Shown one piece after another: positions 3,639 through 20,343 of a DNA stretch of 28,644 nucleotides. Position 1 is the stretch's first letter. Each line of letters opens with the position of its first letter. Origin of the DNA: an uncultured Clostridium sp. GTDB lineage: Bacteria > Bacillota > Clostridia > TANB77 > CAG-508. Under the pieces are notes generated by a model. The model was not told where the DNA came from and did not search any database. It worked only from the letters and a program-made list of their open reading frames with translations. The DNA is taken from the NCBI GenBank assembly GCA_946008205.1, contig CAMGAZ010000001.1, forward strand, positions 1 to 28,644. Direction: 5' to 3'. A program made the translations under genes and the position numbers.

Positions 3639-3650
3639 AGGAGAAAGAGA

Positions 3651-4443: not shown

Positions 4444-4875
4444 GCAACTCCAAATGGTTTTAAGACTTCCCGTCTTTTAATTTTAAAATGGTTTTAAGAA
4501 AGTTTTTTTCCAGGCAATCTCGATATGCTTCACAATTTAAAGATTTACCCGTAATATACCCGCCCCACCTGTATTTTTAACTGATAAAAATATAACAAAT
4601 GTATTGTTGACTTGTTCAACTATTGTATAAAACAATTAAAATACACCCTGCTACACTGTAAACGTATAAAAGCCGTTTATAGTGTTTTTTTATGTGTTAT
4701 TGATACATTACACCTATAAGCATATAAAATCGCTTAAAACGCAATTTAAAGTCTTACAAGCCTATATATGATATATTCATGTGGTCGCTATTGCATCAGT
4801 TCTATATTTAATTAGTTACATCAAACAAATAAAAATTCAGATCTGAAAAAAATTGAAAAAAACTAAAAAAAGTAT

Positions 4876-4988
4876 TTGACATTGATTCGTAGGTTTGTTA
4901 TTATAATGGTGCGGACGGCGTTAAGGTCGAACGCAAGAAAAAAAATAAAAAATAAGGCTTGACAAACAAGTCTGAACGGTAGTAAAAT
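4876..4988 (+). promoter_or_regulatory. Tandem sigmaA promoters opening the early region
   Basis: TTGACA 4876-17 nt-TATTAT (TATAAT 3 nt further on); TTGACA 4959-18 nt-TAAAAT. Confidence 0.7.
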
Positions 4989-5119
4989 GATTACCGTAGA
5001 CAACTTAATACAGAGACACCCGACCGCGTGAAATAGGCTTTAAAGTCGGGGCGGCACGAAATAAGACCGCACAAAACGTATAACTATTGAAACATTAATA
5101 TAATTGGAGGTAAATTAAA

Positions 5120-5404
5120 ATGTTAAAATTAAAGTGTAATACGACTAACGTGAGACCTGAAATAGCTGCTGTAGTGACGGCAGCTTTAAATAAATCGTAC
5201 TGGATGAATGATGTTAAATGCATCATTCGACATAACAGTATTGAGTTTAATTCACGTCATTCAAGCTGGACTGTCGACATAGAGTTCGACCGTCAGACTA
5301 AAAAATATGAAGTCTGTTGGTTTGAAAATAATGTCGCTGACAAAATGATTATAATGGATTCTCCGGAACTCATTATAATGACCGTCATGGACACGTTTTT
5401 TTAA
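5120..5404 (+). CDS. Hypothetical early protein
   Basis: 94 aa, GGAGGT RBS. Confidence 0.8.
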   Translation: MLKLKCNTTNVRPEIAAVVTAALNKSYWMNDVKCIIRHNSIEFNSRHSSWTVDIEFDRQTKKYEVCWFENNVADKMIIMDSPELIIMTVMDTFF

Positions 5405-5415
5405 GGGGGCAAATT

Positions 5416-5661
5416 ATGTTACAAGATAGTAAATATTATATGAAAAAACTTTATAAATCTTTAAGTCCTTGTGAAACAATGTTTCATAAGGACGGACTTA
5501 TAAACATAGAAAGCAACATATCTGACAGATGCGTTGCTATTCTATGGATGTTTCATTATGCTGTTGTAAGCAATAACGGTATAGTGAAACAGTGGCACGG
5601 TGGACGTGCAAAACAGTATGCATTAAAATATGCATACGAAATATTAGAGAGAGAGGTATAA
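5416..5661 (+). CDS. Hypothetical early protein
   Basis: 81 aa, AAGGGGG RBS, operon spacing. Confidence 0.75.
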   Translation: MLQDSKYYMKKLYKSLSPCETMFHKDGLINIESNISDRCVAILWMFHYAVVSNNGIVKQWHGGRAKQYALKYAYEILEREV

Positions 5662-5662
5662 T

Positions 5663-5956
5663 ATGGTAAAAAAAATAGTTGGTATGTTATTAATAGGCGT
5701 TGTGATAGGCTATTGTCTACCACATACGCCAGTTCTCACCGATATAAAAGATGGTGAGAATTACGCTGTTGCTACATTCTTGGAGGATTCTAAGAATGTA
5801 GGTAATGGCGTATTCATTTATGACGGCGGTCATAGTACCGCCAGTAATAAGCAGGTGATTGATTCGCCTATAAAACGCGCACCATTACATGATGGTGCAA
5901 ATTATATAGTTAAACTCAGCAATGATTCAATTGTTGAATGGTACAGATTAAAATAA
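5663..5956 (+). CDS. Hypothetical protein with N-terminal membrane anchor
   Basis: 97 aa, GAGGT RBS, hydrophobic KKIVGMLLIGVVIGYC. Confidence 0.78.
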   Translation: MVKKIVGMLLIGVVIGYCLPHTPVLTDIKDGENYAVATFLEDSKNVGNGVFIYDGGHSTASNKQVIDSPIKRAPLHDGANYIVKLSNDSIVEWYRLK

Positions 5957-5970
5957 GGAGGTAAAAAATT

Positions 5971-6315
5971 ATGAAAAGCAATAGAATTAATACAATCACA
6001 CTGGCTGATTATAGTCAGTTTGTTGACGGCAAGCATCGCAACGGTGGATGTTACGGCTATGATACTATATACACATATAGTCCTGAACAGGATAGGTTTA
6101 CACGTGAGTGGTGTACTACGTGTGAACTCACACCAGACGGAGAGCCGGTTGACGGTTATCCACTGTATGCAACTATCAGCGAATTGATAGATTTTGTCCG
6201 TCAATCCGCTGATACGCCAAATTGCGCCGTATACGTAAATGACGTATGTGTGTGGGAGTCTACTCCGATAGACTCCCATGATATAGACGAATCAAGTCTA
6301 TATCTTGACGAATAA
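5971..6315 (+). CDS. Hypothetical acidic protein
   Basis: 114 aa, AAGGAGGT RBS, followed by a terminator. Confidence 0.8.
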   Translation: MKSNRINTITLADYSQFVDGKHRNGGCYGYDTIYTYSPEQDRFTREWCTTCELTPDGEPVDGYPLYATISELIDFVRQSADTPNCAVYVNDVCVWESTPIDSHDIDESSLYLDE

Positions 6316-6345
6316 AAACAAGGGCGTTACGCCCTTGTTTTTTTT
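6316..6345 (+). terminator. Intrinsic terminator
   Basis: AAACAAGGGCG-tta-CGCCCTTGTTT plus a T-run. Confidence 0.85.
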
Positions 6346-6349
6346 ATTT

Positions 6350-7375
6350 AAAGTGAACATACGTTCGTTTCACAAGTTAGTTAGTTAATCCTAACCAACG
6401 AACGTATGTTCGCTTTAGTACATTAAAGGGGTAAAGTAATTGCCCTGCACAAGAATATGCTTTAATGCTTTAGTGTATTAAAGTAATTTACATTTCATTT
6501 ATTAACTGTTCCACTTTAGTGTATTAAAGTGTTTCATTTGTTTATGATTTTCTTTTTTCGCTTTAATGCGATAAAGTATTTTACAAATGAAATATTGAAC
6601 TGTTCCACTTTATCACTTTAACGCGTTAAAGCAAGAAAATCATAAATCATTGCACTTTACCACTTTAATGTGGTGAAGTGCTGAAGCCGAGCCAAGACGC
6701 TGCATCTTTTTGGTCACTTGTTGCGTCTTGGCTCGGCATTTAATTGAATTGTGAATTACTGATTTTTTAATTGAAAAGTGCATAGAGCAAAAGTGAAATA
6801 TTGTACCCGAAACTATTGACCTCTGCATAAAAACACAAATGAATTATTAGTTAGTTCCATAGTTGCTGCCGCAACGTTCCACTTTTCATTATCCTCTTCA
6901 ATTTTTTCTGGTGTTGTAATCTCCTGTTCTCGATTGAATTTATAAATATATTGAGGTGTTCGAGAACAGGTGTTTAGTTCACAAGTAAAGTGTACGTGTG
7001 TTCGCTATTGCAATGTTCTTAAAAGAACAAGTATGTGGTTAAAAAGAACAAATATTCAGCTTATATGTTCTTTAATCGAACAAAAGAGAATAGATAAAAG
7101 AACTAATATGCAGAATATTTGTTTTAAAAAGCCAAAAAGACCAGTTGACGAACAAATATTCGGAATAAAAAGAATGAAATAGGTGTATATGTGGCTAAAA
7201 AGAACAAATATTTAGATTATGTGTCCGGGTCACAAGCAATAGAAGAACTAATATGCAGAACGCACGTTTGTGCTGCGTGCGATAAAAGAACTAATATGTA
7301 GAACATATATTCATGAACCAATATGTAGAACAGAGGTTTAAAGAACGTATGTATACAGAACAAATATTTGGAATG
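6350..7375. repeat. Non-coding module M1: SOS-box inverted repeat, CTTTA-N6-TAAAG array, GC hairpin, 15-mer, SOS-box array
   Basis: SOS-box IR 6350-6416; CTTTA-N6-TAAAG at 6413, 6468, 6514, 6561, 6616; 15-bp hairpin 6686-6737; CCCGAAACTATTGAC 6806; GAAC-N4-RTTY array 6964-7369. Confidence 0.85.
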
Positions 7376-7418
7376 AGATTGTACTGAAATAAAAATAATA
7401 TAAAATGCGTAAAATGTA

Positions 7419-7447
7419 TTGACAAATATATAAATCTGTAGTAATAT
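7419..7447 (+). promoter_or_regulatory. sigmaA promoter
   Basis: TTGACA-17 nt-TAATAT; nearly identical to the promoter at 8810. Confidence 0.75.
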
Positions 7448-7498
7448 GTATACATAAGTTAAAACAAATTAAAAAAAACAGTAAAGGATGGTTTTAAA

Positions 7499-7786
7499 AT
7501 GAAAAAGTTAATTATTTTAATATCAATTGTTGCTATTACATTCGGTTGTGGTTATGCACTTAAAGCAACAGAAAGTAAAGTACATACGTATACAGACGAA
7601 TGTACATATTATTCAAATAATCCGGAGTGCCCGCAGCTGGGCGGCTCGTTTTATGGCTCTGAAATATGGGATATAAACAATCCAACTTTAGAGGATGGTA
7701 AGACATACATGGTTGAATTAAGCAACCATAAAACGCCTGACGATGCGACAGACGATATTGTAATAGGGTGGACTTTACAGGAATAA
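7499..7786 (+). CDS. Hypothetical protein with N-terminal signal/TM segment
   Basis: 95 aa, MKKLIILISIVAITFGCGYALKA; AAAGGA RBS. Confidence 0.82.
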   Translation: MKKLIILISIVAITFGCGYALKATESKVHTYTDECTYYSNNPECPQLGGSFYGSEIWDINNPTLEDGKTYMVELSNHKTPDDATDDIVIGWTLQE

Positions 7787-7813
7787 ACGGCTCACGCCGT
7801 TTATTTTTTTTTT
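7783..7813 (+). terminator. Intrinsic terminator
   Basis: ATAAACGGC-tcac-GCCGTTTAT plus a T-run. Confidence 0.8.
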
Positions 7814-7879
7814 ATGTTCTATTGTGTATACAACATACAATATATTTTAAAAATATATGATGTTTTTTCTTAAAATGTA

Positions 7880-7908
7880 TTGACAACATTAGAAATACAC
7901 GTTATAAT
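7880..7908 (+). promoter_or_regulatory. sigmaA promoter
   Basis: Perfect TTGACA-17 nt-TATAAT. Confidence 0.85.
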
Positions 7909-7954
7909 AAGACATAAGTTAAATCAAGAAAACATAATGAGAGGAAGTAATAAT

Positions 7955-8176
7955 ATGACAAAGACAGCAAGAGAATTATTAATACAGAATGGTTTTGAAA
8001 CAACAGATAACAATGTATTTACATTGTATATCTTAAATGAAACCGTTATTTTTGACGGTGATAATATCACTTTTAAAAGCATAGACAGAACTGTTTGCGC
8101 TCCAACAGAAAATGATAAAATTGATTTTATTCTTAATTTTATCATGAGTAGTTATACAACTTGTTTTTTAGCATAA
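7955..8176 (+). CDS. Hypothetical protein
   Basis: ATG 7955 behind a GAGAGGA RBS; the longer ORF-track start lies inside the promoter. Confidence 0.72.
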   Translation: MTKTARELLIQNGFETTDNNVFTLYILNETVIFDGDNITFKSIDRTVCAPTENDKIDFILNFIMSSYTTCFLA

Positions 8177-8212
8177 AATAAAATGGTCTGATTTTTCAGA
8201 CCATTTTATTTT
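8176..8212 (+). terminator. Intrinsic terminator
   Basis: AAATAAAATGGTCTGA-tttt-TCAGACCATTTTATTT plus a T-run. Confidence 0.8.
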
Positions 8213-8301
8213 TATTTTAAATTGATTATTTTATTTTTTAAATTGAGTTTTTTATTTTTTAAATTGATAATTGTATATATGTACTGGATTCAATTTCACT
8301 A

Positions 8302-8330
8302 TTGCATTTTATAATTTTATATGTTAAAAT
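8302..8330 (+). promoter_or_regulatory. sigmaA promoter
   Basis: TTGCAT-17 nt-TAAAAT with an extended TG. Confidence 0.6.
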
Positions 8331-8355
8331 AAAATAAAAAAGGATGGTTTTAAAA

Positions 8356-8832
8356 ATGAAAAAATTAAATATCTACTTCGATATGGATGGTACTATTGCC
8401 AATCTATATGAATATAAAGACTGGCTAAAGCATTTGAGAAGTGAGTCAGTCGCACCATATGAATTTTGCAAACCTATGGTAGATATGGAGCAATTAAAAG
8501 AACTGTTACAGAATCCAATAATTAATAGTGTAAATATTATTAGTTGGACTGCAAAGCATGGAACAACAGAATACAACCGAAAGACAAGATACGCCAAAAT
8601 CAGATGGTTAGCCAAAAATGGTTTAGATTACCATTTGATAGATAAATATATAATCGTTCCTTATGGAACAGATAAAGCCGATGCAATAGGCAAACTAACA
8701 GAAAATGACATACTGTTTGATGATGAAAAACAGAACAGGTCTAATTGGATTGTAAAGGGCGGTCATGCTGAGGATGAAAAAAATCTAATAGAAAAATTGA
8801 AAAAATATATTGACAAATATACAAACCTGTAG
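8356..8832 (+). CDS. HAD-superfamily 5'(3')-deoxyribonucleotidase-like phosphatase
   Basis: HAD motif I IYFDMDGTIANL, motif II ISWT, motif IV ILFDD. Start 8356 has the same leader (AAGGATGGTTTTAAAA) as the gene at 7499. Confidence 0.85.
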   Translation: MKKLNIYFDMDGTIANLYEYKDWLKHLRSESVAPYEFCKPMVDMEQLKELLQNPIINSVNIISWTAKHGTTEYNRKTRYAKIRWLAKNGLDYHLIDKYIIVPYGTDKADAIGKLTENDILFDDEKQNRSNWIVKGGHAEDEKNLIEKLKKYIDKYTNL

Positions 8833-8838
8833 TACAAT
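8810..8838 (+). promoter_or_regulatory. sigmaA promoter inside the 3' end of the HAD gene
   Basis: TTGACA-17 nt-TACAAT. Confidence 0.8.
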
Positions 8839-8891
8839 AAAGATAGTTAAGGGCGGCAAGCAAAGCCGCCCAAAGAAAGGAGTAAAAAAAA

Positions 8892-9221
8892 ATGAATGTT
8901 TTAGAAAAAACAAAAGAATTATTATTAGAATGTGTTGATGAAACAGAAATATTTATTCAAGGTGATGACCGTTTCGCAAAAGGTCAGATTACTTTAAATA
9001 ACGGGAGCCTTGATATTAATTTTAGTTATAATGATGTGACGCATAAAGCAAGTATTAGAATCATATATAATACAACCAATTTTGATTTTGATGCGTGGAT
9101 ATGGGATACAACAAGTTTTACAGACTATTCTGCATTTTGCTATGGACTTATCGGAGTTCTTGCAGATTACAATAATTACAATGAAAAAGGTTTTATTATT
9201 AAAATATTACTTGATTTATAG
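8892..9221 (+). CDS. Hypothetical acidic protein
   Basis: 109 aa, AAAGGAG RBS. Confidence 0.8.
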   Translation: MNVLEKTKELLLECVDETEIFIQGDDRFAKGQITLNNGSLDINFSYNDVTHKASIRIIYNTTNFDFDAWIWDTTSFTDYSAFCYGLIGVLADYNNYNEKGFIIKILLDL

Positions 9222-9233
9222 AGGTGAAAAAAA

Positions 9234-9470
9234 ATGAATATGGAAATTTTAAACATTACGGCTATACAGATGGGCGCCCTTGTAAATGAGGGCGCCGATA
9301 GAATAACTGTTATGGGAATCAATAATCCCGTAGTTATGACCGCAATATACAAAGACAATAAACTGACTGTAACATATTATAGCCACGTAGTAAAAGAACA
9401 CATATTATATACAGGTATAACAACAGAGCCTGAAAAAGTGATATGTGGCTTGATGGGATTATTATTATAA
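9234..9470 (+). CDS. Hypothetical protein
   Basis: 78 aa, GAGGTG RBS. Confidence 0.78.
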   Translation: MNMEILNITAIQMGALVNEGADRITVMGINNPVVMTAIYKDNKLTVTYYSHVVKEHILYTGITTEPEKVICGLMGLLL

Positions 9471-9480
9471 GAGGTAAAAA

Positions 9481-9678
9481 ATGAAAAGTAAAATAAATAT
9501 CTTGATATTAAAAATAGTTATAAAGTTTTATAATATATTAATTAAAAAGGCAACTAAAAAAGGTAAAATGGATTTAGTTGAAGAATGCAAGGAAGAACAA
9601 AACAAACTTAAGGAATTAATCAGACATGAAAAAATAAGAAATGAATTAATGAAGTTTGCTAAAAAAATTGATTTATAA
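9481..9678 (+). CDS. Hypothetical basic protein
   Basis: 65 aa, GAGGT RBS. Confidence 0.7.
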   Translation: MKSKINILILKIVIKFYNILIKKATKKGKMDLVEECKEEQNKLKELIRHEKIRNELMKFAKKIDL

Positions 9679-9699
9679 AATTAAAGATTCACATTTTAA

Positions 9700-10535
9700 T
9701 TAGTTCCATACAAGAGCAAAGATTAAAATGTGAATCTTTTTTTAAACATATATACAAACAAGAGCAAAGAAAACATGGATACAATCGCGCGACGCAGCAA
9801 AATTTAACTGTTCGCGCGGTCAATAATTTCAAATGAAACTATTAGTATCTTCTTCTATTGCGCGTGAAATAATTGATAATGCTAATAGTTTCATTTGAAA
9901 TTATTACACTTTACCACTTTAGCACTTTAAAGCGCGAGCCGCGAACCTCGCTGTGTCGGTTGTGCCCTTTGACCGACACAGCGAGGCATTTACTGAACAA
10001 GTGAATTATCAATTTTTTAATTAACAAGTGCATAGTGAACTTGTTAATAGTTGCCGCCCGAAACTATTGACCTCTTCAAACACTTTAGCATAGTAAAGCA
10101 CTAACGCTTTAGTGCGCTAAAGTGAAAACTATAAACTCCCTCTTCAGCGCTTCATTGCGTTAAAGTGTTAATGTACTAAAGCGAAATTTAAAATATGTAT
10201 ACAACCATGCGGATTGTATACGATTTAAGAATTGTATACATATTTTAAATTTCGCTTTAGTACATTAACGTGGAAGAGCGCAATAATTGGCAGGGTCAAC
10301 GGTACGTCCGGTCGTGTATACAATATGCAACATACAAAATACAATGCTCCCGATGGAGCAAAAAACGAACTGATATGCAGAACAGTTGTTTGTCATGCTC
10401 CATCGGGAGCATTTCATAAGTGAATTATTGACTGGATCAATGATCGGAGCACGAAAACCTTGACCATATAAATAGTTGTCGCAGCAGATTATTTACAAGT
10501 GAAGATGCTCCCGTACTTTCATGTATACAATATAC
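9700..10535. repeat. Non-coding module M2
   Basis: 17- and 20-bp IRs; GC hairpin 9946-9986; CCCGAAACTATTGAC 10057; CTTTA-N6-TAAAG at 10083 and 10107; TGTATAC sites 10196-10240; TGCTCC-N4-GGAGCA at 10345 and 10396 flanking an SOS-like box at 10380. Confidence 0.85.
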
Positions 10536-10548
10536 ACGCTAATTTTAA

Positions 10549-10675
10549 TTGACATTGTGCCGACATTAGTTTATACTATAATTGTTCTTGAGGATAGGAA
10601 CACAACGAGAGTTGAAAACAAAGTTCTTAAGAATGAAAAAAAGTGCTTGACAATCTTACTTAAATGCTTTAAAAT
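10549..10675 (+). promoter_or_regulatory. Tandem sigmaA promoters
   Basis: TTGACA 10549-17 nt-TATACT; TTGACA 10647-17 nt-TAAAAT. Confidence 0.8.
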
Positions 10676-10761
10676 GGTAAGTGTCAAGGGAACTTGATAG
10701 AATTTAAAAATGTTTTAAAAGTCATGTAACAAGACTATAAAACCGAAAGGAATGGCAAATT

Positions 10762-11130
10762 ATGGCTAACAACAAAATTACACAGGTAAAGGCACTTGAA
10801 ACAGTTATCAACGCTATCAAGGATACGGATATCGTGTCCGCTGAAGTAATCAACAAAATTGTTGATATTAAAACGGCGTTAGAAAAGAAAGCAAACGCCA
10901 CAAGTAAGCGTGCAAGCAACGCTAATGCTGAATTGCTTGAAAAAGTACTCCCACTGTTTACGGATGTACCGAACACACTCACTGAATTACTCACGGCTAA
11001 TCGTGAACAGTTCGACGAACTTGGTATTTTAACAAGTCAGAAGTTGAACGCTGTTATCCGCCCAGCGGTTGAAGATGGTCGACTGTTCCGTGAAAAGAAC
11101 GGAAAGACTACAACATTCAGACTTGTATAG
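10762..11130 (+). CDS. Small protein with probable C-terminal winged HTH; paralog of 13732..14094
   Basis: Shares ...LTSQKLNxVIxPAVEDGRLFREKNGKTTTFRLV with 13732..14094. Confidence 0.85.
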   Translation: MANNKITQVKALETVINAIKDTDIVSAEVINKIVDIKTALEKKANATSKRASNANAELLEKVLPLFTDVPNTLTELLTANREQFDELGILTSQKLNAVIRPAVEDGRLFREKNGKTTTFRLV

Positions 11131-11200
11131 TAAATTTATTCATTATCACTTTAAAGGTTGGGAGCTTTACAGCTCCCACCTATTAAAGGGAGATTGCACA

Positions 11201-11587
11201 TTGAAAAATAAATATAATGAAAAACAGATTGTCAATTTAATGCAATCGCTTGATATTTCACGCAATGACGCAATAGAAATACTTCAAGCGGATGCGGAGA
11301 TTGACAAGGGTGCAAAGTTATTTGAACTCACACCGGAGCAAAAAGCCGTTGAAAAGAAAATGCGAAAAACTGTAAAAATTGTAGCACCAAACGGAAAAAA
11401 GGCTCAGCGGGAATTAAAAATTGACGACAACAGAGAAAAATTGCTGACGTCAATAATTGAATTGTTCAATGAAAAATTCTCAATTGAGAATATTGAACGA
11501 CCGCCCCGCACAACAAATAAAATTCGGTTTCAATTTTTCGGTGACACTTTTAGTGTCACTATTGCAAAAGAGAGGAAGAAAAAGTAA
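11201..11587 (+). CDS. Hypothetical protein; paralog of 14172..14534
   Basis: TTG start behind a GGGAG RBS. Shares GAKLFELTPEQKAVEKKMRKTVKIVAPNGKKA with 14172..14534. Confidence 0.82.
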   Translation: MKNKYNEKQIVNLMQSLDISRNDAIEILQADAEIDKGAKLFELTPEQKAVEKKMRKTVKIVAPNGKKAQRELKIDDNREKLLTSIIELFNEKFSIENIERPPRTTNKIRFQFFGDTFSVTIAKERKKK

Positions 11588-11591
11588 ATAA

Positions 11592-12299
11592 ATGTTTTAT
11601 AATTCAATTTTAAAAAAAGATAATCGTTGTACATATTATATGGTACTGGATACAGAAACGGCGGTTTATGACCCTACTATTAAAGAGATAAAAGGCACTA
11701 ATATGTTAGTTTATGATTTAGGATATGCTATTGTAGACCGTTATGGGCGCATCTATGAAACAGGCTCTTTTATTGTGAAAGATATATTTTATGATGAAAT
11801 AGAACGCATGAAATCTTGTTATTTTGCCGACAAGCGTTCAACTTATATTCAAGATATTGAAAAAGGTTTACATACTGTTGTAAACTGGAAAAACCTTGTT
11901 TTTTTACTTGAAGAGCGATTGAGTTACTGGAACGTACGTGCGATATGTGCGTATAATGCAATATTTGACTATGGGGCAATATGTCGCACGAATAATTTTG
12001 TAAATGGTAAATACTGGAAACCGCCTTTATTGAAAAAATATCCAGTATGGGATATTATGAAAATGACAGAAGATGTGCTATATAAGCGACCGACATATAG
12101 AAAATTCTGTTTTGACAATGGTAACTTGACAGCACACACACCGCCACGACCACAGAAAAAAGCGGAAACAGTAAAACAGTATATTGAAAATAATCCACAG
12201 TTTAAAGAAGTGCATACAGGACTTGAAGATGTTTATATCGAAAGTGAAATATTAGCAAAATGTTTTGCTACTCACAAGAAAATGAGACGTGAATTATAA
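11592..12299 (+). CDS. DEDDh 3'-5' exonuclease
   Basis: ExoI VLDTET, ExoII AYNAIFD, ExoIII HTGLED. Confidence 0.9.
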   Translation: MFYNSILKKDNRCTYYMVLDTETAVYDPTIKEIKGTNMLVYDLGYAIVDRYGRIYETGSFIVKDIFYDEIERMKSCYFADKRSTYIQDIEKGLHTVVNWKNLVFLLEERLSYWNVRAICAYNAIFDYGAICRTNNFVNGKYWKPPLLKKYPVWDIMKMTEDVLYKRPTYRKFCFDNGNLTAHTPPRPQKKAETVKQYIENNPQFKEVHTGLEDVYIESEILAKCFATHKKMRREL

Positions 12300-12360
12300 T
12301 AATTTAAAGGTCAAGCAATTATTATTAATTGCTTGACTGATAAAACAAAGGAGTAGGCAC

Positions 12361-12702
12361 ATGAACGAAAAAATCATAAATACATTAATTAAAATATGTG
12401 AAAATAACGGAGAATATACAACTTTGTATATACCGAAACACGATAGAATCTCACTTGTATATACTTCTAATTTAAATGATGAGATTCTGTACATTGAAAC
12501 AATTAACAATACAGAATATAAATTTGAAAGTGATTACGACGAACTTATAGACACAAACATAGAATATATTATCTTAAGTATATATGATACTTTAATAAAA
12601 ATAAAACTAGAATCTTTAACTGGAGATTTATATATTGATAATGTAAATGATTTCAACGATATAATTACAATTGTAAATAATATAAGAGAAAAATATTGCT
12701 AA
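12361..12702 (+). CDS. Acidic Ile/Asn/Asp-rich hypothetical protein
   Basis: 113 aa, AAGGAG RBS. Confidence 0.75.
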   Translation: MNEKIINTLIKICENNGEYTTLYIPKHDRISLVYTSNLNDEILYIETINNTEYKFESDYDELIDTNIEYIILSIYDTLIKIKLESLTGDLYIDNVNDFNDIITIVNNIREKYC

Positions 12703-12718
12703 TGAAAGGAATAATATA

Positions 12719-13042
12719 ATGAATATGATAAATATTATTAATGAAATAAATAAACATTTAAACATCTATGAAATAGCACAGACAGTTGAAAATGTAATAG
12801 GTAACAATGATTATAAATTTGAAATAATTGATAATGATTTAATTGTTAGTGATATCAATGACAATACAACAATTACAATATTATCTAATAACTTTTTAAA
12901 AACTCACGATTTGGAAGAAGTAATTTATAACATAAAAGTTGCAATATTAATTTATGAAATAAATATTCACTTTGACAATTATTGTCTTGATAATGAACAG
13001 ATTGATGCGATGCTAAGTATTGTTACAGGTTTGATTTATTAA
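12719..13042 (+). CDS. Acidic Ile/Asn/Asp-rich hypothetical protein
   Basis: 107 aa, AAAGGA RBS; weak similarity to the preceding gene (YKFE motif). Confidence 0.75.
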   Translation: MNMINIINEINKHLNIYEIAQTVENVIGNNDYKFEIIDNDLIVSDINDNTTITILSNNFLKTHDLEEVIYNIKVAILIYEINIHFDNYCLDNEQIDAMLSIVTGLIY

Positions 13043-13050
13043 TAAGTGAA

Positions 13051-13510
13051 ATGCTCCCACTACTTTATCACTCTATTGCGGTAAAGCGTTGGGAGCATCA
13101 CTTTAGTCCTTTAATACTTTATCCTACTAAAGCGGGAGCACGAACGAACAAATGTTCGGGAGCACCACGAACACGAACAGGCGTTTGCGAACACATGTTC
13201 TTGGGAGCACTGACCCTCGCTGTGACGCCCAAAGGGCACGGTCGTCACAGCGAGGGATTTAACTGAAACTTCACTTGTGAATTATTTGCTTGGATAAGCA
13301 AACTATTAGCATGACAACTATTTCGCCCGAAACTATTGACATATGCAATAATTCACTTGTGAAGCGAAATTGTATACGTGTTTTAATGCAAAAGGATTGT
13401 ATACAATCTGAAAATTGTATACAAGTTCTTTAATCTCATAAAAAAATACAATTTTAACGCGTTAAAGCGCCGAAGATTGTTAAAAATTTAACAAAAAGTA
13501 TACAAAATAC
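13051..13510. repeat. Non-coding module M3
   Basis: GGGAGCA x5; CTTTA 8-bp tandem 13101-13132; SOS boxes at 13146, 13175, 13189; GC hairpin 13214-13256; CCCGAAACTATTGAC 13326; TTGTATACAA at 13397 and 13415. Confidence 0.85.
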
Positions 13511-13633
13511 ATAAAAAATACACAAAATTTCTCAAAAATGCTTGCAAAAAAGCAAAAAATTTGTTATTATTATAGTACAAACAAGAGGGAAAGAAAAAAG
13601 TAATCCTCTTCAAAAAAAGTTTAAAAAAAAGTA

Positions 13634-13662
13634 TTGACAAACCCTTAAACCTATGTTAATAT
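13634..13662 (+). promoter_or_regulatory. sigmaA promoter
   Basis: TTGACA-17 nt-TAATAT with an extended TG. Confidence 0.75.
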
Positions 13663-13731
13663 ATAAGTACAAAAGGGGAACAAAACAAAGTCAGCTGAAA
13701 AAGACGTTAAAACAGAGAAAAGGACAAATTA

Positions 13732-14094
13732 ATGGAAAAGATGACACAGAAGAAAGCAATGGAAATTACTATCGCAGCATTAGAAAACAAGGAAATAGTT
13801 TCAGATGAAGTTATTGGCAAACTCAAGGATATTCTTACTGCGCTTGACAAGAAGAGCAAGAGTGTAAGTAAGAAGAAAACAGAAGAAAACGCGGAATTAC
13901 TTGAAAAGGTGCTTTCTCTGTTTAGTGACGCGCCAAACACACTGACTGAAACACTTGTCGCGCATCGTGCTGAATTTGACGAACTGGAAATACTTACCAG
14001 CCAGAAGTTAAATTCTGTAATTAAGCCAGCCGTAGAAGATGGCAGACTGTTCCGTGAAAAGAACGGAAAGACAACAACATTCAGACTTGTGTAA
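13732..14094 (+). CDS. Paralog of 10762..11130
   Basis: 120 aa, near-identical C-terminus; AAAGGA RBS. Confidence 0.85.
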   Translation: MEKMTQKKAMEITIAALENKEIVSDEVIGKLKDILTALDKKSKSVSKKKTEENAELLEKVLSLFSDAPNTLTETLVAHRAEFDELEILTSQKLNSVIKPAVEDGRLFREKNGKTTTFRLV

Positions 14095-14171
14095 CTAATA
14101 ATTAATAATTAAAATGTCAAACAACGGGGTGAGTGTAAAAACTCACCCTTTAAAAAACAAGGGGTGAATTA

Positions 14172-14534
14172 ATGAACAAAGAAATTGAAAAATTAATGAA
14201 AACTCTTGATATTTCAGAAGAAGAGGCACGGGAAATTATTGAAACTGACAAAGAAATTGACCGCGGCGCGAAGTTGTTTGAACTTACGCCAGAGCAAAAA
14301 GCTGTTGAAAAGAAGATGCGAAAAACGGTTAAAATAGTCGCGCCGAATGGTAAAAAGGCAGAGCGTCCACTTAAAATAGACCCTACGCGCGAAAGTCTGA
14401 TGCAAGCTATCACAGACGCGCTGAAAGAACGTACAGATGCAATCACGCGCCCTGAAAAGACTACAAACACAATGTTATTGGATATTGGCGTAGATACCTT
14501 CAAAATAGTTGTTTCAAAAATACGTAAAAAATAA
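14172..14534 (+). CDS. Paralog of 11201..11587
   Basis: 120 aa, shared central block; GGGGTG RBS. Confidence 0.85.
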   Translation: MNKEIEKLMKTLDISEEEAREIIETDKEIDRGAKLFELTPEQKAVEKKMRKTVKIVAPNGKKAERPLKIDPTRESLMQAITDALKERTDAITRPEKTTNTMLLDIGVDTFKIVVSKIRKK

Positions 14535-14558
14535 GTGGTAGAAATACCACTTTTTTTG
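14535..14558 (+). terminator. Intrinsic terminator
   Basis: GTGGTA-gaaa-TACCAC plus a T-run. Confidence 0.75.
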
Positions 14559-14587
14559 TTGACATTGTGCGCGACCTGTAGTATAAT
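14559..14587 (+). promoter_or_regulatory. sigmaA promoter
   Basis: Perfect TTGACA-17 nt-TATAAT. Confidence 0.85.
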
Positions 14588-14614
14588 AAAGACAGTTAAG
14601 GGAGGTAAACAAAA

Positions 14615-15022
14615 ATGAACAAACTAACACAAACAGAAATTTATACAGAGGATGCAAAAGGAAGAAGATATGTGGGCGCAAGTAAGCATTTTAGATATAA
14701 TGATTTACTGGAGCGCGCGACCTACAAGCCGACTTCCTATGAAGAATTTATTCAGAATTTAGAATCAATTATTGATTCGTATTATATAACGTCACTTGTT
14801 GATGTAGAATATCAGCCGAATATCAAAATCATTGTGGAAAACGTTCCTTTAAATACGGAATTAATCACATGGGGATACTCAGAAATTATGGAAAGACTTT
14901 TAGAAGAAGAAAAAAATGCTTTCAATCTTTCAAAGGGTTTAATCTCAGTAGACCGGAACAAATACAAAAAAGCAAAAGAAGAAGAAAAAAGGAAATTTAT
15001 AGAAAAATATGAAAGTAGGTAA
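14615..15022 (+). CDS. Hypothetical protein
   Basis: 135 aa, GGGAGGT RBS. Confidence 0.82.
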   Translation: MNKLTQTEIYTEDAKGRRYVGASKHFRYNDLLERATYKPTSYEEFIQNLESIIDSYYITSLVDVEYQPNIKIIVENVPLNTELITWGYSEIMERLLEEEKNAFNLSKGLISVDRNKYKKAKEEEKRKFIEKYESR

Positions 15023-15025
15023 AAA

Positions 15026-15499
15026 ATGAAATTATTAATTATATTCACAATCTTAACAATTATAAACGTTATCGCATCAACAATAAAATCACTTCTCACC
15101 GTAAATGGTGGGAAGTGGTTGGCATCAATAAGTTCTGCGGTCTATTACGGCTATTATAACATTGTTTTGATATACACCGTAGCAGACTTCCCGATGTGGC
15201 AAAAAGTCGCTGTAACAGCCGCTTGTAACGTTATAGGTGTATTCCTTGTTAAATGGTGTGAAGAACGCGCGGAAAAAACAAAACTCTGGAAAGTTGAGGC
15301 TACGTGTAAGTGGAATGAGGCGGGCGCGCTTATAGAAGAATGTGAAAATAAAGATTTATCATTTAATTATATTGATGTAAATAAATATATTATTTTCAAC
15401 TTCTATTGCGCTACGAAAGAGGAAAGCGCACAAGTGAAAGAAGTATTGAAGAAATATGGAACTGTAAAATATTTTGTTTCTGAATCAAAAAACTTATAA
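15026..15499 (+). CDS. Membrane protein with about 3 TM helices plus a small soluble domain (DUF5698-like)
   Basis: Hydrophobic N-terminal 75 aa, LTIINVIASTIKSLLTV, polar C-terminal domain. Confidence 0.75.
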   Translation: MKLLIIFTILTIINVIASTIKSLLTVNGGKWLASISSAVYYGYYNIVLIYTVADFPMWQKVAVTAACNVIGVFLVKWCEERAEKTKLWKVEATCKWNEAGALIEECENKDLSFNYIDVNKYIIFNFYCATKEESAQVKEVLKKYGTVKYFVSESKNL

Positions 15500-15506
15500 A
15501 AATATC

Positions 15507-15535
15507 TTGACATTGTTCCCCTATTGTATTAATAT
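15507..15535 (+). promoter_or_regulatory. sigmaA promoter
   Basis: TTGACA-17 nt-TAATAT. Confidence 0.75.
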
Positions 15536-15581
15536 ATAATTACAAAAGGGGAACAATGAAGAAAAGAAAGGAAAGTAAAAA

Positions 15582-15908
15582 ATGTTAGGATTTATTGCGG
15601 CAGGTTTAATACTTACGGTTTCGGTCGGCGCGTTCTTTGCGCTAATATTGACAATGAAGTTAGAAGGAAAAACAAGAATTATAATTGCTGTTATTCTTGC
15701 TTTTGTAATAGGTTTTGGACTTTTAAAGATATTAATGCTTAACGCAGAAAAAGAAAACGAAGAATGGAACAATGGTATTTGTATCAAATGTGGTGGAAAA
15801 TATGAATTTCAAAGTAGTTCATATAGAAGGCATTCAAATGATGAATATTATTATACTTGTAAAAACTGTGGCTACACAATAGAATTAAGCAGTTTAAGAA
15901 ATAGTTAA
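15582..15908 (+). CDS. Membrane protein with C-terminal zinc ribbon
   Basis: Two TM segments, then CIKC...CKNC. Confidence 0.8.
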   Translation: MLGFIAAGLILTVSVGAFFALILTMKLEGKTRIIIAVILAFVIGFGLLKILMLNAEKENEEWNNGICIKCGGKYEFQSSSYRRHSNDEYYYTCKNCGYTIELSSLRNS

Positions 15909-15917
15909 AAAAATATC

Positions 15918-15946
15918 TTGACACAAGAGAAAAGAAGTAATATAAT
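15918..15946 (+). promoter_or_regulatory. sigmaA promoter
   Basis: Perfect TTGACA-17 nt-TATAAT. Confidence 0.85.
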
Positions 15947-16005
15947 AACATTGTAAGGGCGCGACAGCAAAACGCGCCCCAGTAAATAAAAGGAAGGAAG
16001 AAAAA

Positions 16006-16434
16006 ATGAAAAACACATTTGAATACGCAAAGATAAAAGAAGAAAAAATGAAAAAAAAGAAATGTTTTAGATTTAAACATGGAAGATGGGAATGTAATTA
16101 TTTTTTAGTTCCTTTGATTCCTATAGTTGCAACTTATGAAAAGATTAATAAATTTTATAATAACAGACTTACTTGGAGTGAGAAAAAAGCCACTAAAGTA
16201 TTAAATAGTATCTTACCTAAAATCCTTTGGTACGATTCTAAAAACGATGTATACAGTTATGACACAGGCTGTAGAACATGGATTTTTGTAGATAATGCAC
16301 CTTTAATATATCGGTCATGGACAAAGAAATATCGCGAATATTTAGAACACTATCTGATAGATAATTACGAAAATCCATTATATAACAAGTCTATTGAAGA
16401 TGATTATATAATTTTTAGTGAAAAGACAAAATAA
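16006..16434 (+). CDS. Hypothetical protein
   Basis: 142 aa, AAGGAAGG RBS. Confidence 0.78.
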   Translation: MKNTFEYAKIKEEKMKKKKCFRFKHGRWECNYFLVPLIPIVATYEKINKFYNNRLTWSEKKATKVLNSILPKILWYDSKNDVYSYDTGCRTWIFVDNAPLIYRSWTKKYREYLEHYLIDNYENPLYNKSIEDDYIIFSEKTK

Positions 16435-16510
16435 TATCTTGATGCAAAAGAAAGAAGGTATATGGGCGCGACAGCAAAACGCGCCCAGTAAATAAAAGGA
16501 AGGTAAAAAG

Positions 16511-17080
16511 ATGGCACATAATTGGAAGTGGTACGTTAAAAATAATGATTTTGAAGGCTGTTTAGAAAGATTCAATGCAGCAAATAAAGGTTGGAAGAAA
16601 CATTGGTTTAGTGTTTTAGAAGATATATATAATAATTGTAAAGAATGGTCAAAAAAATATATTCTTGACCCTGTAGAGATGGTAGTTATAACCATTTCAG
16701 ATTGTATTAAAAAGACAACTAAAAAAGTGCAGAATCTTGTAAATGGTGCGAATAGCCATACATATTTAATAAATATGTATGATGAAGAGGATAATTTGGT
16801 TTTTACAAAAATTGGTAAAGCTGACAATATTAATAAAAGATTCAACGCTCTTGAGCGTCAGTATTACGCTACACAAGACATACAAATTGCGCGTATTGAG
16901 CCAGTCCATGTATTTAACGTCAAGAATGACGACCTTGCGCAAGTGCTTGAAAGTTTCATCAGAAATCTATTCCGCAAAACGCGCGACTTTATTCCAAACG
17001 ATAGATTTAAACCCTTTACACCATCAGAAGAGGAATGGAAAGAAATGGAAAGATATTATAAATTAGTTTGCGCAGAATGA
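16511..17080 (+). CDS. T5orf172/GIY-YIG-superfamily domain protein
   Basis: TYLINM...FTKIGKADNINKRF...LES resembles the Y-x-I...KIG...R...E pattern. Confidence 0.7.
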   Translation: MAHNWKWYVKNNDFEGCLERFNAANKGWKKHWFSVLEDIYNNCKEWSKKYILDPVEMVVITISDCIKKTTKKVQNLVNGANSHTYLINMYDEEDNLVFTKIGKADNINKRFNALERQYYATQDIQIARIEPVHVFNVKNDDLAQVLESFIRNLFRKTRDFIPNDRFKPFTPSEEEWKEMERYYKLVCAE

Positions 17081-17090
17081 TAAAAAAGGT

Positions 17091-17119
17091 TTGACAAAAG
17101 CCTTAATATATTATATAAT
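17091..17119 (+). promoter_or_regulatory. sigmaA promoter
   Basis: Perfect TTGACA-17 nt-TATAAT. Confidence 0.85.
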
Positions 17120-17157
17120 TAAGATACAAAAGGGGAACAAAAGAAAGAAGGTAAAAC

Positions 17158-17334
17158 ATGAAAACAACAGCAAGAGGAATAATAAGACGTTTTGATGACT
17201 TAGGCAGAATTGTAATTCCTAAAGAAATCCGCCGTAAATTTAAAATCAACGCGGGCGAGCCAGTTGGAATATATATAACTGAAGAGGGCATATTATTAAA
17301 GCCTTACAATCCCGAATCAAAAAGTAAGTTTTAA
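17158..17334 (+). CDS. abrB: Second AbrB-family regulator, 58 aa (missed by the ORF track)
   Basis: MKTTARGIIRRFDDLGRIVIPKEIRRKFKINAGEPVGIYITEEGIILKPY; GAAGGT RBS. Confidence 0.9.
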   Translation: MKTTARGIIRRFDDLGRIVIPKEIRRKFKINAGEPVGIYITEEGILLKPYNPESKSKF

Positions 17335-17354
17335 AAAATAATTTAAAAAGGGGA

Positions 17355-17383
17355 TTGACAAAACTCAATCCCCATGATATACT
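17355..17383 (+). promoter_or_regulatory. sigmaA promoter firing into non-coding module M4
   Basis: TTGACA-17 nt-TATACT with an extended TG, embedded in the IR GGGGATTGA/TCAATCCCC. Confidence 0.7.
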
Positions 17384-17393
17384 CATTTTAAGT

Positions 17394-17900
17394 AGAACGT
17401 CTGCGAACAAACAGGTGTTCTTTTTATTTTTGGCGCGAACAGATATTCGGAAAAAACTTTATTGCTTTACTGCGCTAAAGTGTTTAAAATGTTAATAGTT
17501 GCGCTTTAGCCCAGTAAAGTGATAAAGTAGTTGAATTGTAAAATATTGCGCTTTAGTAGTTTAGCGCTTTAGCGCGATAAAGTAGTTGAATTGTGAACTG
17601 GTCGTCGGCGGAGCAGACGACCAGAATTTTCCATTTAACCCGTCCTGCCAATTTTTTCCAGCAAAACCCCCATAGCGCGAGCCCCTAGAATCCGCCCGAA
17701 ACCAAGCATAGCGCGCACGGGCCCCATAGCGCGCAGACAAAAAACCCGGTTCGCTTCGCTCACACAAATGGCGCGAAAGCAAGCCACATAGCGAGCACCT
17801 CTATTTCTTGGCGCGGAATCAACCGCGGCGCACAAACCAAGCAACCCGGTAGCGTGAGCAAGCCACCAGTGCGGAGCGCTATCCTGAGCTTTTTCTCAGA
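17394..17900. repeat. Non-coding module M4 and GC-rich repeat tract
   Basis: SOS-like boxes at 17409 and 17437; CTTTA-N6-TAAAG at 17465, 17504, 17567; hairpin 17598-17624; CATAGCGMG repeats 17670-17795. Confidence 0.8.
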
Positions 17901-18045
17901 AAGCCCTTTGAATCACACGCAAGAGGAAAGAAAAAAAAGAATCGCGCGAACCGCAGTAAAACTTGACAATCACAAAAATTTTATAATGTCAACTGCGGGC
18001 TTACAGTAAAATCCGCGTTTTCTTTTTATTATAACATAAAAAATA

Positions 18046-18070
18046 AAGGAAAGCAATTAGCGCTTTCCTT
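18046..18070 (-). terminator. Terminator at the convergence point
   Basis: AAGGAAAGC...GCTTTCCTT overlapping the stop of 18057..18860. Confidence 0.6.
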
Positions 18071-18860
18071 CATTTTCTTCTTCAAGTTTTTGTAGTTTGC
18101 GCGCAAGCTTGTTCTCATCCTTTTGTTTTTGCTTTTGAATATTTAATTCTATTTCATGGGCAGTCAAAGGCTCTTGATCTATCTTAGGTAAGGTTCTAGG
18201 TATAAAGCACCACTTTTCGGCGAATTTGCAAACCGCGTTAAAATATTTTTCTTCCTCTTGTGCTTTGATAATATTACCAGTTTCTTCCCAAGAAAAATGT
18301 CCATTACAATATAATAACACAACTTGTTTTCTATCTACAAAATTAGACTTAAATTGCTCGCGCAAACATTCTTTCCAGAAATCGAGCGCATTTACCTCAT
18401 TCTCATTTATATCTTTTAGATATTCATATTTACCATCAGTCTTCATCCAAACCCAAGCGGTATCATCCCAATGCTTATTATAATCTTCATTAATAATAGT
18501 TCCATACTTGCGCGCAGCCGTAGAAGTCTTATGCTCCCACCTGTCGCGCACATCTTTTCTAGATCTTGCTATATTAGCCGCGGTATTATGAGGAAAATCC
18601 TTAAGTTCTTCTGCAAGACTTTCACGATAATCTTTATCCATCTCTTGCTTGCGTTTATCGTTATAGCGGACATATTCTGAGGTATCAAACTCTTCTTTGA
18701 GAATGATGTCACCACCTCGCGCCTTTTCGATATATTCAAAGTCAAAGTAAGATAACCAGTATGCAGAATAATCATCCCATTTGCGACTTATTGTTCTTCT
18801 ATTTTCACCTAAAAAAGAGCAAAACTTAGTTATAGAATATTTGTTTGGAGATATAATCAT
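18057..18860 (-). CDS. Hypothetical protein, distant paralog of 19407..20150
   Basis: 267 aa. N-terminal NKYSITKFCSFL...YFDFEY parallels NKEYSTTAFLKIL...YFDYEY. GAAAGGA RBS. Confidence 0.8.
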   Translation of the reverse strand: MIISPNKYSITKFCSFLGENRRTISRKWDDYSAYWLSYFDFEYIEKARGGDIILKEEFDTSEYVRYNDKRKQEMDKDYRESLAEELKDFPHNTAANIARSRKDVRDRWEHKTSTAARKYGTIINEDYNKHWDDTAWVWMKTDGKYEYLKDINENEVNALDFWKECLREQFKSNFVDRKQVVLLYCNGHFSWEETGNIIKAQEEEKYFNAVCKFAEKWCFIPRTLPKIDQEPLTAHEIELNIQKQKQKDENKLARKLQKLEEENEGKR

Positions 18861-19071
18861 TATAACACATCCTTTCTTTCAATATCTCTCATATTATATA
18901 AAAAATCAGTAACAAACATTCTAATAAAATGTCCTGAACAGTGAAATATGGCTTATAACAGTTTTTCTGAGCTTTTGGTCAAAAAATCTGAAGCCTGACG
19001 TCGCATGACCGCCGTAGGCGCGAGCGATAGCGAGCCATCTATCTTTTAAGAATTTTGAGTTTTGTTGTAGT

Positions 19072-19143
19072 CTGAGAAAAAAAAATGAGCAGAAAATTCC
19101 ACGTCTTTATAAAGAGGATTTTCTGCTCATTTTTTTTTCTCAG
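19072..19143. repeat. Long inverted repeat (25-bp perfect arms)
   Basis: CTGAG-A9-TGAGCAGAAAA ... TTTTCTGCTCA-T9-CTCAG. Confidence 0.9.
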
Positions 19144-19406
19144 CCGTGGTTTTGATTTCGTCCTAGAATCTGTTCCTTGGTTTTGAATTGAAAATTTGAT
19201 TTGCTCCTTGAGGTTGTTTTTAAAATGAAAATTGTGATTGCCCTCCGGGCAATCATTTTTTTAAAATGAAATTTATTGTCGTTCCGTATTCTGGCATAGA
19301 GGGGGTGTAACTAGGGTTTATAAACCCCCAGTAAAAAAATCCCTATTTTTTGCATAGTAAAAGTGATGTGGTTGCTATTTATAGCAACCACGCAACCATA
19401 TCACTC

Positions 19407-20150: not shown

Positions 20151-20287
20151 AAAAGAATCACCTCTCTTTCATATGTTATAAAAAATCTTATCAATAACTT
20201 ATTATTTTTCGCCCAAAATCTTTTCAAGACCAAACTCTAGTTTAACGCCCGAATAGTGAAAAAAGTAAATATACTTATTTTTATTGA

Positions 20288-20343
20288 AATGTAAACTTCG
20301 ACGGACTCGTAATATTCTTTATGAATCCGTCGAAGTTTACATT
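20288..20343. repeat. 18-bp perfect inverted repeat
   Basis: AATGTAAACTTCGACGGA ... TCCGTCGAAGTTTACATT. Confidence 0.9.

Follow-up and report, generated by a model that had tools for sequence, protein, structure and literature searches.

Four conserved non-coding array modules between the early operons of a Clostridia-associated phage: constrained cis-acting DNA and candidate protein-binding control regions

Why should a phage keep four long gene-free stretches between the operons of its early region, and what reads them? The question is raised by the window analysed here, the whole of contig C1 (28,644 nt), which is phage DNA from a metagenome bin fragmented into 331 contigs (1.84 Mb, 31% GC). 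Four non-coding spacers separate its early operons: M1 (~6343-7400), M2 (9679-10540), M3 (13043-13530) and M4 (17384-18056), in sum 3081 bases by our boundaries. A first, sequence-only reading described them as related modules sharing palindrome clusters, a GC-rich hairpin, a repeat and SOS-type boxes, and all of these parts are present in the sequence. We find that the modules are real, strongly constrained cis-acting DNA. Who binds them, and to what effect, we infer; the reading we favour, at about even confidence, is that they bind proteins and control the early programme, with a dimeric phage protein, host LexA and further early products as their readers.

The modules do not encode proteins. 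No open reading frame (ORF) of at least 94 amino acids lies within them under genetic codes 11, 15 or 4, the second of which is the code of the distant relative phAss-1; only short chance frames occur, and hidden coding was rejected on this ground. Indels between the modules of related phages are not multiples of three. Rfam 15 (E ≤ 1) returned only sub-threshold, chance-level matches, and no tRNA or tmRNA was detected by ARAGORN. As to position, a terminator or terminator-like hairpin marks the left edge of M1 (6314-6342), M2 (9683-9743) and M4 (17394-17421), M3 begins directly after a stop codon, and the right edge of every module is followed by one or two strong promoters (Table 1). M4 had been taken to end at 17900; the module is real but extends to ~18056.

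The palindrome CTTTA-N6-TAAAG (motif A) is present in 12 exact copies, all of which lie in modules (five in M1, three in M2, one in M3 and three in M4). Shuffled sequence contains 0.14 ± 0.40 copies, and none of 100 shuffles reaches 12. A comparison of 59 distinct sites, drawn from six genomes, shows a central hexamer of low information content and flanks that extend the symmetry to ~24 bp, the 16-bp palindrome taking the extended form (TA-N-YR)CTTTA-N6-TAAAG(YR-N-TA). The centres of the half-sites are 11 bp apart, that is one helical turn, the geometry predicted for a dimeric helix-turn-helix or ribbon-helix-helix protein. Two near-copies with one mismatch (CTGTA-N6-TAAAG) overlap the −10 boxes of the promoters at 8810 and 14559.

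Boxes of the form GAAC-N4-GTTY are distributed in the same way. All 10 distinct sites lie in modules (14 strand hits against 1.46 expected), as do 15 of the 16 sites with at most one mismatch to GAAC-N4-GTTC, and their spacers are mostly RNRY. The LexA operator of C. difficile and C. perfringens is GAAC-N4-GTTT/C (PMC4234289), and the SPbeta boxes bound by B. subtilis LexA have a perfect GAAC/GTTC core (PMC8270828). Judged by their sequence, the module boxes fit a Gram-positive/Clostridial LexA operator. No strong promoter of the early region carries such a box, the distance between boxes and promoters being 40 to ~1000 nt.

A four-way alignment of the modules reveals a shared core of ~130 bp, consisting of a GC-rich perfect hairpin and a conserved flank in which ATTTA..TGAA, GTGAATTA, a T-rich stretch, (GTG)CATAG and CCCGAAAC(TATTGAC) follow one another in this order; each module has exactly one CCCGAAAC. 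The four hairpins (−18 to −36 kcal/mol, z −3.3 to −6.9) differ in sequence from module to module. The 35-mer previously reported as common to M1 and M2 is real, and the earlier repeat inventory is right as far as it goes, but partial: TTGTATACAA and GGGAGCA recur in M2 and M3, CATAGCGCG in M4, and a 25-bp GAAC-N9-GAAC-N4-RTTY unit in M1b and M2. Two conventional identities were considered for parts of the core and rejected. On inspection of the sequence, the TTGAC of CCCGAAACTATTGAC is not followed by a usable −10 box in any of the four modules, so that the core does not qualify as a sigma-A promoter, and the GC hairpins are followed by tails of only 3-4 U, in contrast to the long T-runs of the phage's clear terminators. 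The DnaA box TTATCCACA (≤1 mismatch) occurs nine times in the window against 8.3 expected, with one-mismatch matches in M1b (7034, 7190) and no paired array. Spo0A boxes, parS, Rex, CodY and cre sites are absent from the modules.

Relatives of the phage were found with a degenerate pattern of the M1/M2 core, and by protein search combined with contig look-ups. In public collections, everything that the degenerate 35-mer pattern matched was related to this phage; scanning viral contigs with a 16-mer produced nine unrelated matches and one true relative, and neither a protein-pattern scan of viral contigs nor a pattern scan of genome contigs gave a result. In metagenomes of animal guts and wastewater the clade is common, with dozens of contigs. 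Its most distant member relative to the window, G001, is 75.8 kb long, 79% identical and collinear with it; the others comprise four short contigs at ~90% identity and six loci from 27-140-kb contigs at 83-90%. The four modules recur without change of order in seven further genomes (79-90% identical), each module with one CCCGAAAC, the exception being M3 of L124 and L126, which lacks the box block and the core. Every genome carries 11-16 exact CTTTA-N6-TAAAG sites and 10-18 LexA-type boxes, and in the full length of G001 the palindrome is confined to modules.

Conservation of the modules exceeds that of the genes around them. Over aligned columns of the window and G001, the modules are 83-91% identical, with long stretches of M2 at 93-100% and the M1 segment 6703-6782 at 88-100% (40-nt bins), compared with 61% at four-fold sites (n = 509) and 84% at codon positions 1 and 2 in 15 early genes. 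At the same time, copy number and block content vary. G001 has two extra M1a units and six boxes in the M3 box block, against three in the window; in its M4, two perfect GAAC-N4-GTTC boxes replace part of the block at 17437-17582, and at the position of M1b four perfect GAAC-N4-GTTC boxes are found within unrelated, unalignable sequence. The iteron block of M4 measures 220-322 nt across genomes. Variable copy number or block content with constant block type and position would be in keeping with iteron and operator arrays. The conservation and the copy-number variation that the sequence-only reading had suggested looking for in related phages are thus both found.

The manner in which the modules change is equally informative. 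In the M1 box pair of six genomes, RAAC-N4-GTTY is held, the spacers vary, and the complementarity of spacer to spacer is gone in three. Fixed half-sites with drifting spacers are what would be expected of sequence-specific binding by dimeric proteins, and because the half-sites of the palindromes stay fixed while their spacers drift, we interpret them as protein sites. In the M2/M3 hairpin family, 6 of 18 predicted pairs show pair-keeping double changes and one a U.G, pairing being broken at few positions; the M4 hairpin underwent two independent compensatory C-G to T-A switches in relatives. Since the stems change by compensatory pairs, it is structure that appears to be kept: selection on the GC hairpins is, on this comparison, for pairing and not for sequence.

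Which organism supplies the binders? In the co-binned bacterium (1.77 Mb of non-phage contigs), motif A occurs 5 times against 8 in reversed controls, TTGTATACAA (motif C) 6 against 7 and CATAGCGCG (motif E) once against 2. None of the three is enriched, so that none serves as the operator of a host regulon in that genome; for CTTTA-N6-TAAAG this argues for a phage protein as binder, and the binders of all three are more likely to be phage-encoded than host-encoded. The earlier designation of the modules as operator arrays holds for the protein-binding type of site and for the Clostridial LexA-like boxes, but the associated idea of a host-factor sponge finds no support for CTTTA-N6-TAAAG, TTGTATACAA or CATAGCGCG, and titration of a host regulator by CTTTA-N6-TAAAG in particular is not borne out, the motif being no commoner in the co-binned genome than its reversed control.

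In the reading that we favour, each module would be a cis-acting, non-coding region of nucleoprotein assembly between the end of one operon and the sigma-A promoters of the next. The CTTTA-N6-TAAAG arrays would most likely be read by a phage early protein, because the palindrome occurs only in this phage clade, and the Clostridial-type boxes most likely by host LexA, while the clade-specific repeats TTGTATACAA, GGGAGCA and CATAGCGCG would serve other binders. The single GC-rich hairpin of each module, with its conserved flank of ~90 bp, would act structurally. The most probable effect of occupied arrays would be to order the early programme in time: operons with strong promoters would be shut off, insulated or activated one after another, and the SOS state of the host would feed into this programme through the LexA-type boxes. 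A comparable role has been proposed for the untranslated repeat regions of T5.

Several observations weigh against this reading. Searches of ~30 early proteins against Pfam and PHROGs left most without a match and provided no candidate binder, and an AlphaFold model of the 120-amino-acid protein encoded after M2 and M3 (predicted local distance difference test, pLDDT, 72) gave no fold match. The nearest promoter is 0.3-1 kb away from many of the sites, an uncommon distance for simple operators, and conservation is high over entire modules, beyond the recognizable sites. RNA sequencing (RNA-seq) contigs cross parts of modules, which keeps RNA-level roles in play, at least for the hairpins. Finally, the SOS boxes of the co-binned bacterium are AAAC-N4-GTTT and not GAAC, the bin not being the proven host, and no CRISPR-spacer-like match from the bin to the phage was found. 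In the bin, AAAC-N4-GTTT, a variant of the usual GAAC-N4-GTTC, occurs twice at recA (C164) and once over the −35 box of lexA (C3).

Among the alternatives, stepwise entry of the kind known from phage T5 fares best and is nevertheless unlikely. The spacers would be points at which injection pauses or is pulled onward, LexA and then the products of earlier operons drawing in the next promoters. Their placement between an operon end and the next rightward promoters, the common direction of all early promoters, the close anatomical parallel with the T5 repeat regions and the presence of a HAD gene with a functional parallel in T5 dmp (8344-8832) and a T5orf172-domain gene all agree with this, as does a mix of sites that differs from module to module. 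In contrast, fixed ends or a terminal repeat find no evidence: assembly depth in the source run is flat (15-20) from 3373 to 20000 with no step, and the early region occupies arbitrary positions in contigs of 137-140 kb. Nor are DnaA boxes enriched, and no homologue of T5 A1/A2 was seen, though no search was aimed at one. A broader version, in which the spacers are multi-step checkpoints where binding of LexA or early products draws in or unlocks the next operon, or buffers a phage repressor as a timer, strikes us as no less doubtful.

It is improbable that the arrays are decoys, titrating host LexA after replication or buffering a phage repressor so that early shut-off requires a threshold and acts as a timer. 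Many high-quality sites do lie away from promoters, two promoters carry weaker near-sites, and repeated decoy sites sharpen dose-responses (PMC3322331). The proposal that LexA is titrated on entry is implausible, because a single genome copy offers only 10-18 sites, and an abundant repressor would not be titrated by one entering genome; multiplied by replication, the same boxes would by calculation amount to hundreds to thousands of sites per cell, so that titration is arithmetically possible only late, after replication. We know of no natural phage example of decoy arrays. Against decoys also speaks that CTTTA-N6-TAAAG, TTGTATACAA and CATAGCGCG have no host regulon to derepress in the co-binned genome, that a pure sponge needs neither conserved order nor hairpins nor 90% conservation between sites, and that the M3 box block is wholly absent in L124 and L126.

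Improbable to the same degree is a role at the RNA level, with the modules transcribed and acting as structured non-coding RNAs or as signals for the processing, stability or termination of early transcripts. The compensatory changes keep the hairpins, one with a G.U on the + strand, and in the public RNA-seq run X19, contigs of a relative cover the early region including parts of modules (7305-7932, 10239-11597 and 16002-17936), with almost nothing right of 18309, though DNA runs cover that part. These contigs are unstranded and may include DNA carry-over; they suggest that early transcription is real and at the least reads through into the modules. Against an RNA role, the main repeats are palindromes conserved in sequence, without covariation, and would form only weak RNA hairpins (5 bp, four of them A-U); the iteron blocks vary in copy number, no Rfam family matches, and the modules start after a terminator, with no good promoter found inside them.

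Less probable still are replication origins, with iterons for an initiator, or a partition centromere of the sopC/parC type. Iteron-like arrays are present, the tandem 46-55-bp units of M1a, each with a 16-bp palindrome, are reminiscent of F sopC, AT-rich stretches adjoin the GC hairpins, and large phages can have several origins. The centromere-like loading arrays of the sequence-only reading find no support: no ParA-, ParB- or ParR-type gene and no initiator was recognized among the window proteins (Pfam, PHROGs), and no parS in the modules. DnaA boxes do not exceed chance expectation, a set of four scattered copies would be out of the ordinary, and no lysogeny or plasmid functions were seen.

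The gene cassettes between modules differ among relatives. Two of them (5120-5661 and 12361-12702) are too diverged to be recognized, G001 lacks 7499-8340 and L026 lacks 9237-9677. Cores also appear to trade sequence: the L125 M3 hairpin carries the M2 stem, and in the close relative L024 (3786-3900) the core after M1a matches the M2 core of the window (94%) better than the M1 core, which suggests sequence exchange between modules. Recombination linkers or selfish repeats, kept alike by exchange between phages while cassettes swap, would account for this, but are highly improbable, as they need neither precise palindromes with fixed half-sites, nor compensatory hairpins, nor LexA-type boxes that recur in unrelated sequence. 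In L127 (Logan SRR25571835_323, 83.8 kb; ~3024-3505), the early genes flip from rightward to leftward near the position of M3, either by palindrome-mediated inversion or as an assembly artefact.

Table 1. Features of the four modules and their borders (window positions)
Feature	Position	Strand	Remarks
Intrinsic terminator, closes operon upstream of M1	6314-6342	+	13-bp stem, then T-run
M1, two perfect LexA-type boxes (6355, 6400)	6352-6414		Inverted orientation
M1a, tandem 46-55-bp units	6413-6680		CTTTA-N6-TAAAG in each (5 exact, plus near-copies)
M1, GC-rich hairpin	6686-6737		15-bp stem
M1, core flank	6738-6820	+	ATTTAATTGAA .. GTGAATTA-N17-AAGTGCATAG .. CCCGAAACTATTGAC
M1b, array of GAAC-N4-RTTY boxes	6960-7375		With 25-bp GAAC-N9-GAAC-N4-RTTY units
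Sigma-A promoter of operon after M1	7419-7447	+	
Terminator-like hairpin, M2 left edge	9683-9743	+	With T-run; −23.6 kcal/mol, z −9.0
M2, run of CTTTA half-sites	9909-9932		Every 8 bp, last is full palindrome
M2, GC-rich hairpin	9946-9986		
M2, core flank	9987-10071	+	Ends in CCCGAAACTATTGAC; 95-100% identity to G001
M2, further CTTTA-N6-TAAAG sites	10083-10269		With perfect palindrome, 38-nt arms bearing TGTATACA repeats
M2, GGGAGCA repeats	10343-10530		With one GAAC-N9-GAAC-N4-GTTT unit and TATACAATAT repeats
Two sigma-A promoters after M2	10549-10675	+	
M3, GGGAGCA repeats	13052-13140		Interleaved with CTTTA/TAAAG sites
M3, three LexA-type boxes	13146-13200		Flanked by GGGAGCA
M3, GC-rich hairpin	13214-13256		Reverse complement of M2 hairpin, loop included
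M3, core flank	13257-13340	+	Ends in CCCGAAACTATTGAC
M3, three ATTGTATACA repeats	13362-13425		
Sigma-A promoter after M3	13634-13662	+	
Promoter, then at once strong terminator, M4 left edge	17355-17421	+	LexA-like box in terminator stem
M4, LexA-like box, then three exact CTTTA-N6-TAAAG sites	17437-17582		With half-site runs
M4, GC-rich hairpin	17598-17624		9-bp stem
M4, core flank with CCCGAAAC, then iteron block	17625-17900		CATAGCGCG-type iterons, 50% GC
Promoter-like site, then directly terminator	17963-18040	+	Convergent end of early region

In the promoter-terminator pairs at 17355-17421 and 17963-18040, a strong terminator follows within ~10-40 nt and transcripts would be only ~40 nt long; both pairs are kept in G001. 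M2 and M3 are each followed by a two-gene cassette, that at 10924-11425 having its duplicate at 13888-14381 (74-76% DNA identity), and together with these downstream genes the two modules look like an old segmental duplication. The 120-amino-acid product of the cassette has no family match.

The RecA of the bin is 89% identical to that of uncultured Clostridia/Clostridiaceae genomes and so places the bin among uncultured Clostridia. The leftward genes of the contig match PHROGs of large Firmicutes phages, a sigma-factor family among them, and a 397-amino-acid protein has distant homologues (25-38% amino acid identity) in phages of ~115-142 kb that infect Enterococcus (EF1, VRE9, H1), Geobacillus (E3) and Lactococcus (949 group), and in gut phage phAss-1. 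Protein relatives were found in Firmicutes phages only, and blastn with near and distant settings gave no DNA match against 50,697 phage records. On the + strand from ~3100 to 17400, ~25 small genes follow at least 14 sigma-A promoters, which match the consensus at 10-12 of 12 positions, have A-rich tracts upstream and all point in the same direction; this is a typical early or host-takeover region. A DNA-binding protein of the AbrB/MazE fold (3327-3638) is its first Pfam-matched gene, and a second (17158-17334) its last gene. Besides these two, the only early proteins with matches are one with a T5orf172 domain and the HAD nucleotidase-like product of 8344-8832, which has the motif DMDGT and matches PHROG 2643 (5'-3' deoxyribonucleotidase; E 8e-9).

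Outside the early region, a T-run followed by TATAWMAWAT is found 10-15 nt before the ribosome-binding sites of non-early genes (1905-1914, 18891-18900 and 20171-20180 on the − strand, 22624 on the + strand), and may represent the promoter type that the sigma-like protein of the phage itself (1933-2982) recognizes. A distinct family of hairpins, GTGATTGC..GCAATCAC, is present in at least six copies within 19234-20604; they lie in spacers next to the leftward genes 18057-20150 and ahead of 20643, and promoter-plus-hairpin sequence akin to it is present on bin contigs C12, C111 and C156. The coordinate set 22650-23549, 26449-27504 and 25845-26210 comprises two genes resembling homing endonucleases, of the GIY-YIG plus helix-turn-helix kind, and one for an Ltp-type surface lipoprotein (Pfam PF07553, E 1e-48), a type usually tied to superinfection exclusion.

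Array-rich spacers are found in other phages as well. The same bin holds a second phage, with 30-55% amino acid identity to the first, in which a short module of inverted TTATGTAAAC pairs stands before every early operon, 30-100 nt upstream of the sigma-A promoters; in some modules, a perfect LexA-type box (e.g. CGAACAAATGTTCG) lies between or beside the TTATGTAAAC repeats. This phage is represented by contigs C114 and C180 (also C184, C161, C211, C30, C40 and C252), its early operons include tRNA genes, and one spacer (C114, 2830-2990) contains a block of ~12 CAGCTG/AGCTG repeats. In Enterococcus phage EF1 (L037, MF001358.1; 5300-15080), early spacers of 0.4-1 kb have palindrome arrays of their own: six Rex-box-like TGTGAA-N4-TTCACA sites, many AAATAACA/TGTTATTT words (AAATAACA..TGTTATTT) and GTAAGCGCTTAC palindromes. 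Array-rich spacers before early operons thus seem general in this phage group; the main repeat is apparently lineage-specific, with the LexA-type box common to both Clostridia-associated phages. A literature search on repeats of Lactococcus phage 949 found nothing relevant.

About a tenth of the early DNA of this phage is non-coding and evolves more slowly than the genes around it, and its role is therefore important to the phage. From the modules it may be learned by what means large virulent phages schedule or gate the early programme and sense DNA damage in the host. Analogous spacers are available in the second phage of the bin and in cultivable Enterococcus phages (EF1/VRE9/H1 group), for which laboratory hosts exist.

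How do the modules compare with known systems? F sopC and the omega heptad arrays of pSM19035 are built from tandem short palindromes or heptads, dispersed upstream of promoters and bound by one small dimeric protein. The modules differ from such plasmid centromeres in that neither a partition ATPase nor a centromere-binding protein was recognized, and in that they occur outside any plasmid or prophage setting. With the tandem decoy transcription-factor sites of Lee and Maheshri (2012; PMC3322331), they share tandem sites away from regulated promoters, a likeness of layout only, as that system is synthetic and operates in yeast.

The boxes resemble LexA operators of Firmicutes and their temperate phages (PMC4234289; PMC8270828; GIL01, PMC4551915) in the GAAC-N4-GTTC/T core and the RNRY-type spacer, and yolC/yolD of SPbeta in having several boxes close together. 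Unlike these, which lie on regulated promoters of temperate elements, the module boxes, 10-18 per genome, belong to the non-coding spacers of a phage that is apparently virulent, and most do not coincide with a recognizable promoter. A virulent Firmicutes phage with host regulator sites is known in phi29, whose Spo0A boxes make the early programme responsive to the state of the host (PMC2731898). Multiple candidate sites for a host global regulator in a lytic Firmicutes phage would be common to both, but in phi29 the sites are few and located at early promoters and replication ends, whereas here they form multi-motif arrays mostly off promoters.

The closest analogue is T5, and the earlier statement that no described element has this layout does not hold. 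The pre-early DNA of T5, in the left terminal repeat, contains three untranslated repeat regions described as 'extremely complicated', which keep the same order in 25 relatives, are conserved above the adjoining ORFs, include paired DnaA boxes, share a 131-bp unit between two regions and were proposed, without proof, to contain an injection stop signal (Davison 2020, doi 10.1101/866236). Similarly, the modules are several gene-free stretches (0.2-1.2 kb) in the first-expressed DNA of a large virulent siphovirus, with host-factor boxes, a unit of ~130 bp shared between regions, constant element order in relatives, conservation above that of neighbouring ORFs and, in both cases, an unproven function; the HAD 5'-deoxyribonucleotidase-like gene offers a functional parallel to pre-early dmp. 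In contrast to T5, there are four regions, each preceding an operon, the boxes are of LexA type and not paired DnaA boxes, the host belongs to the Gram-positive Clostridia, and neither sequence homology nor detectable protein homology exists. A terminal repeat and two-step transfer are described for T5. The T5 regions have gone unexplained for decades, and a Gram-positive counterpart with countable motifs offers concrete binders to seek. The layout is not unprecedented: the modules are a Gram-positive variant of a known, unexplained type of phage element.

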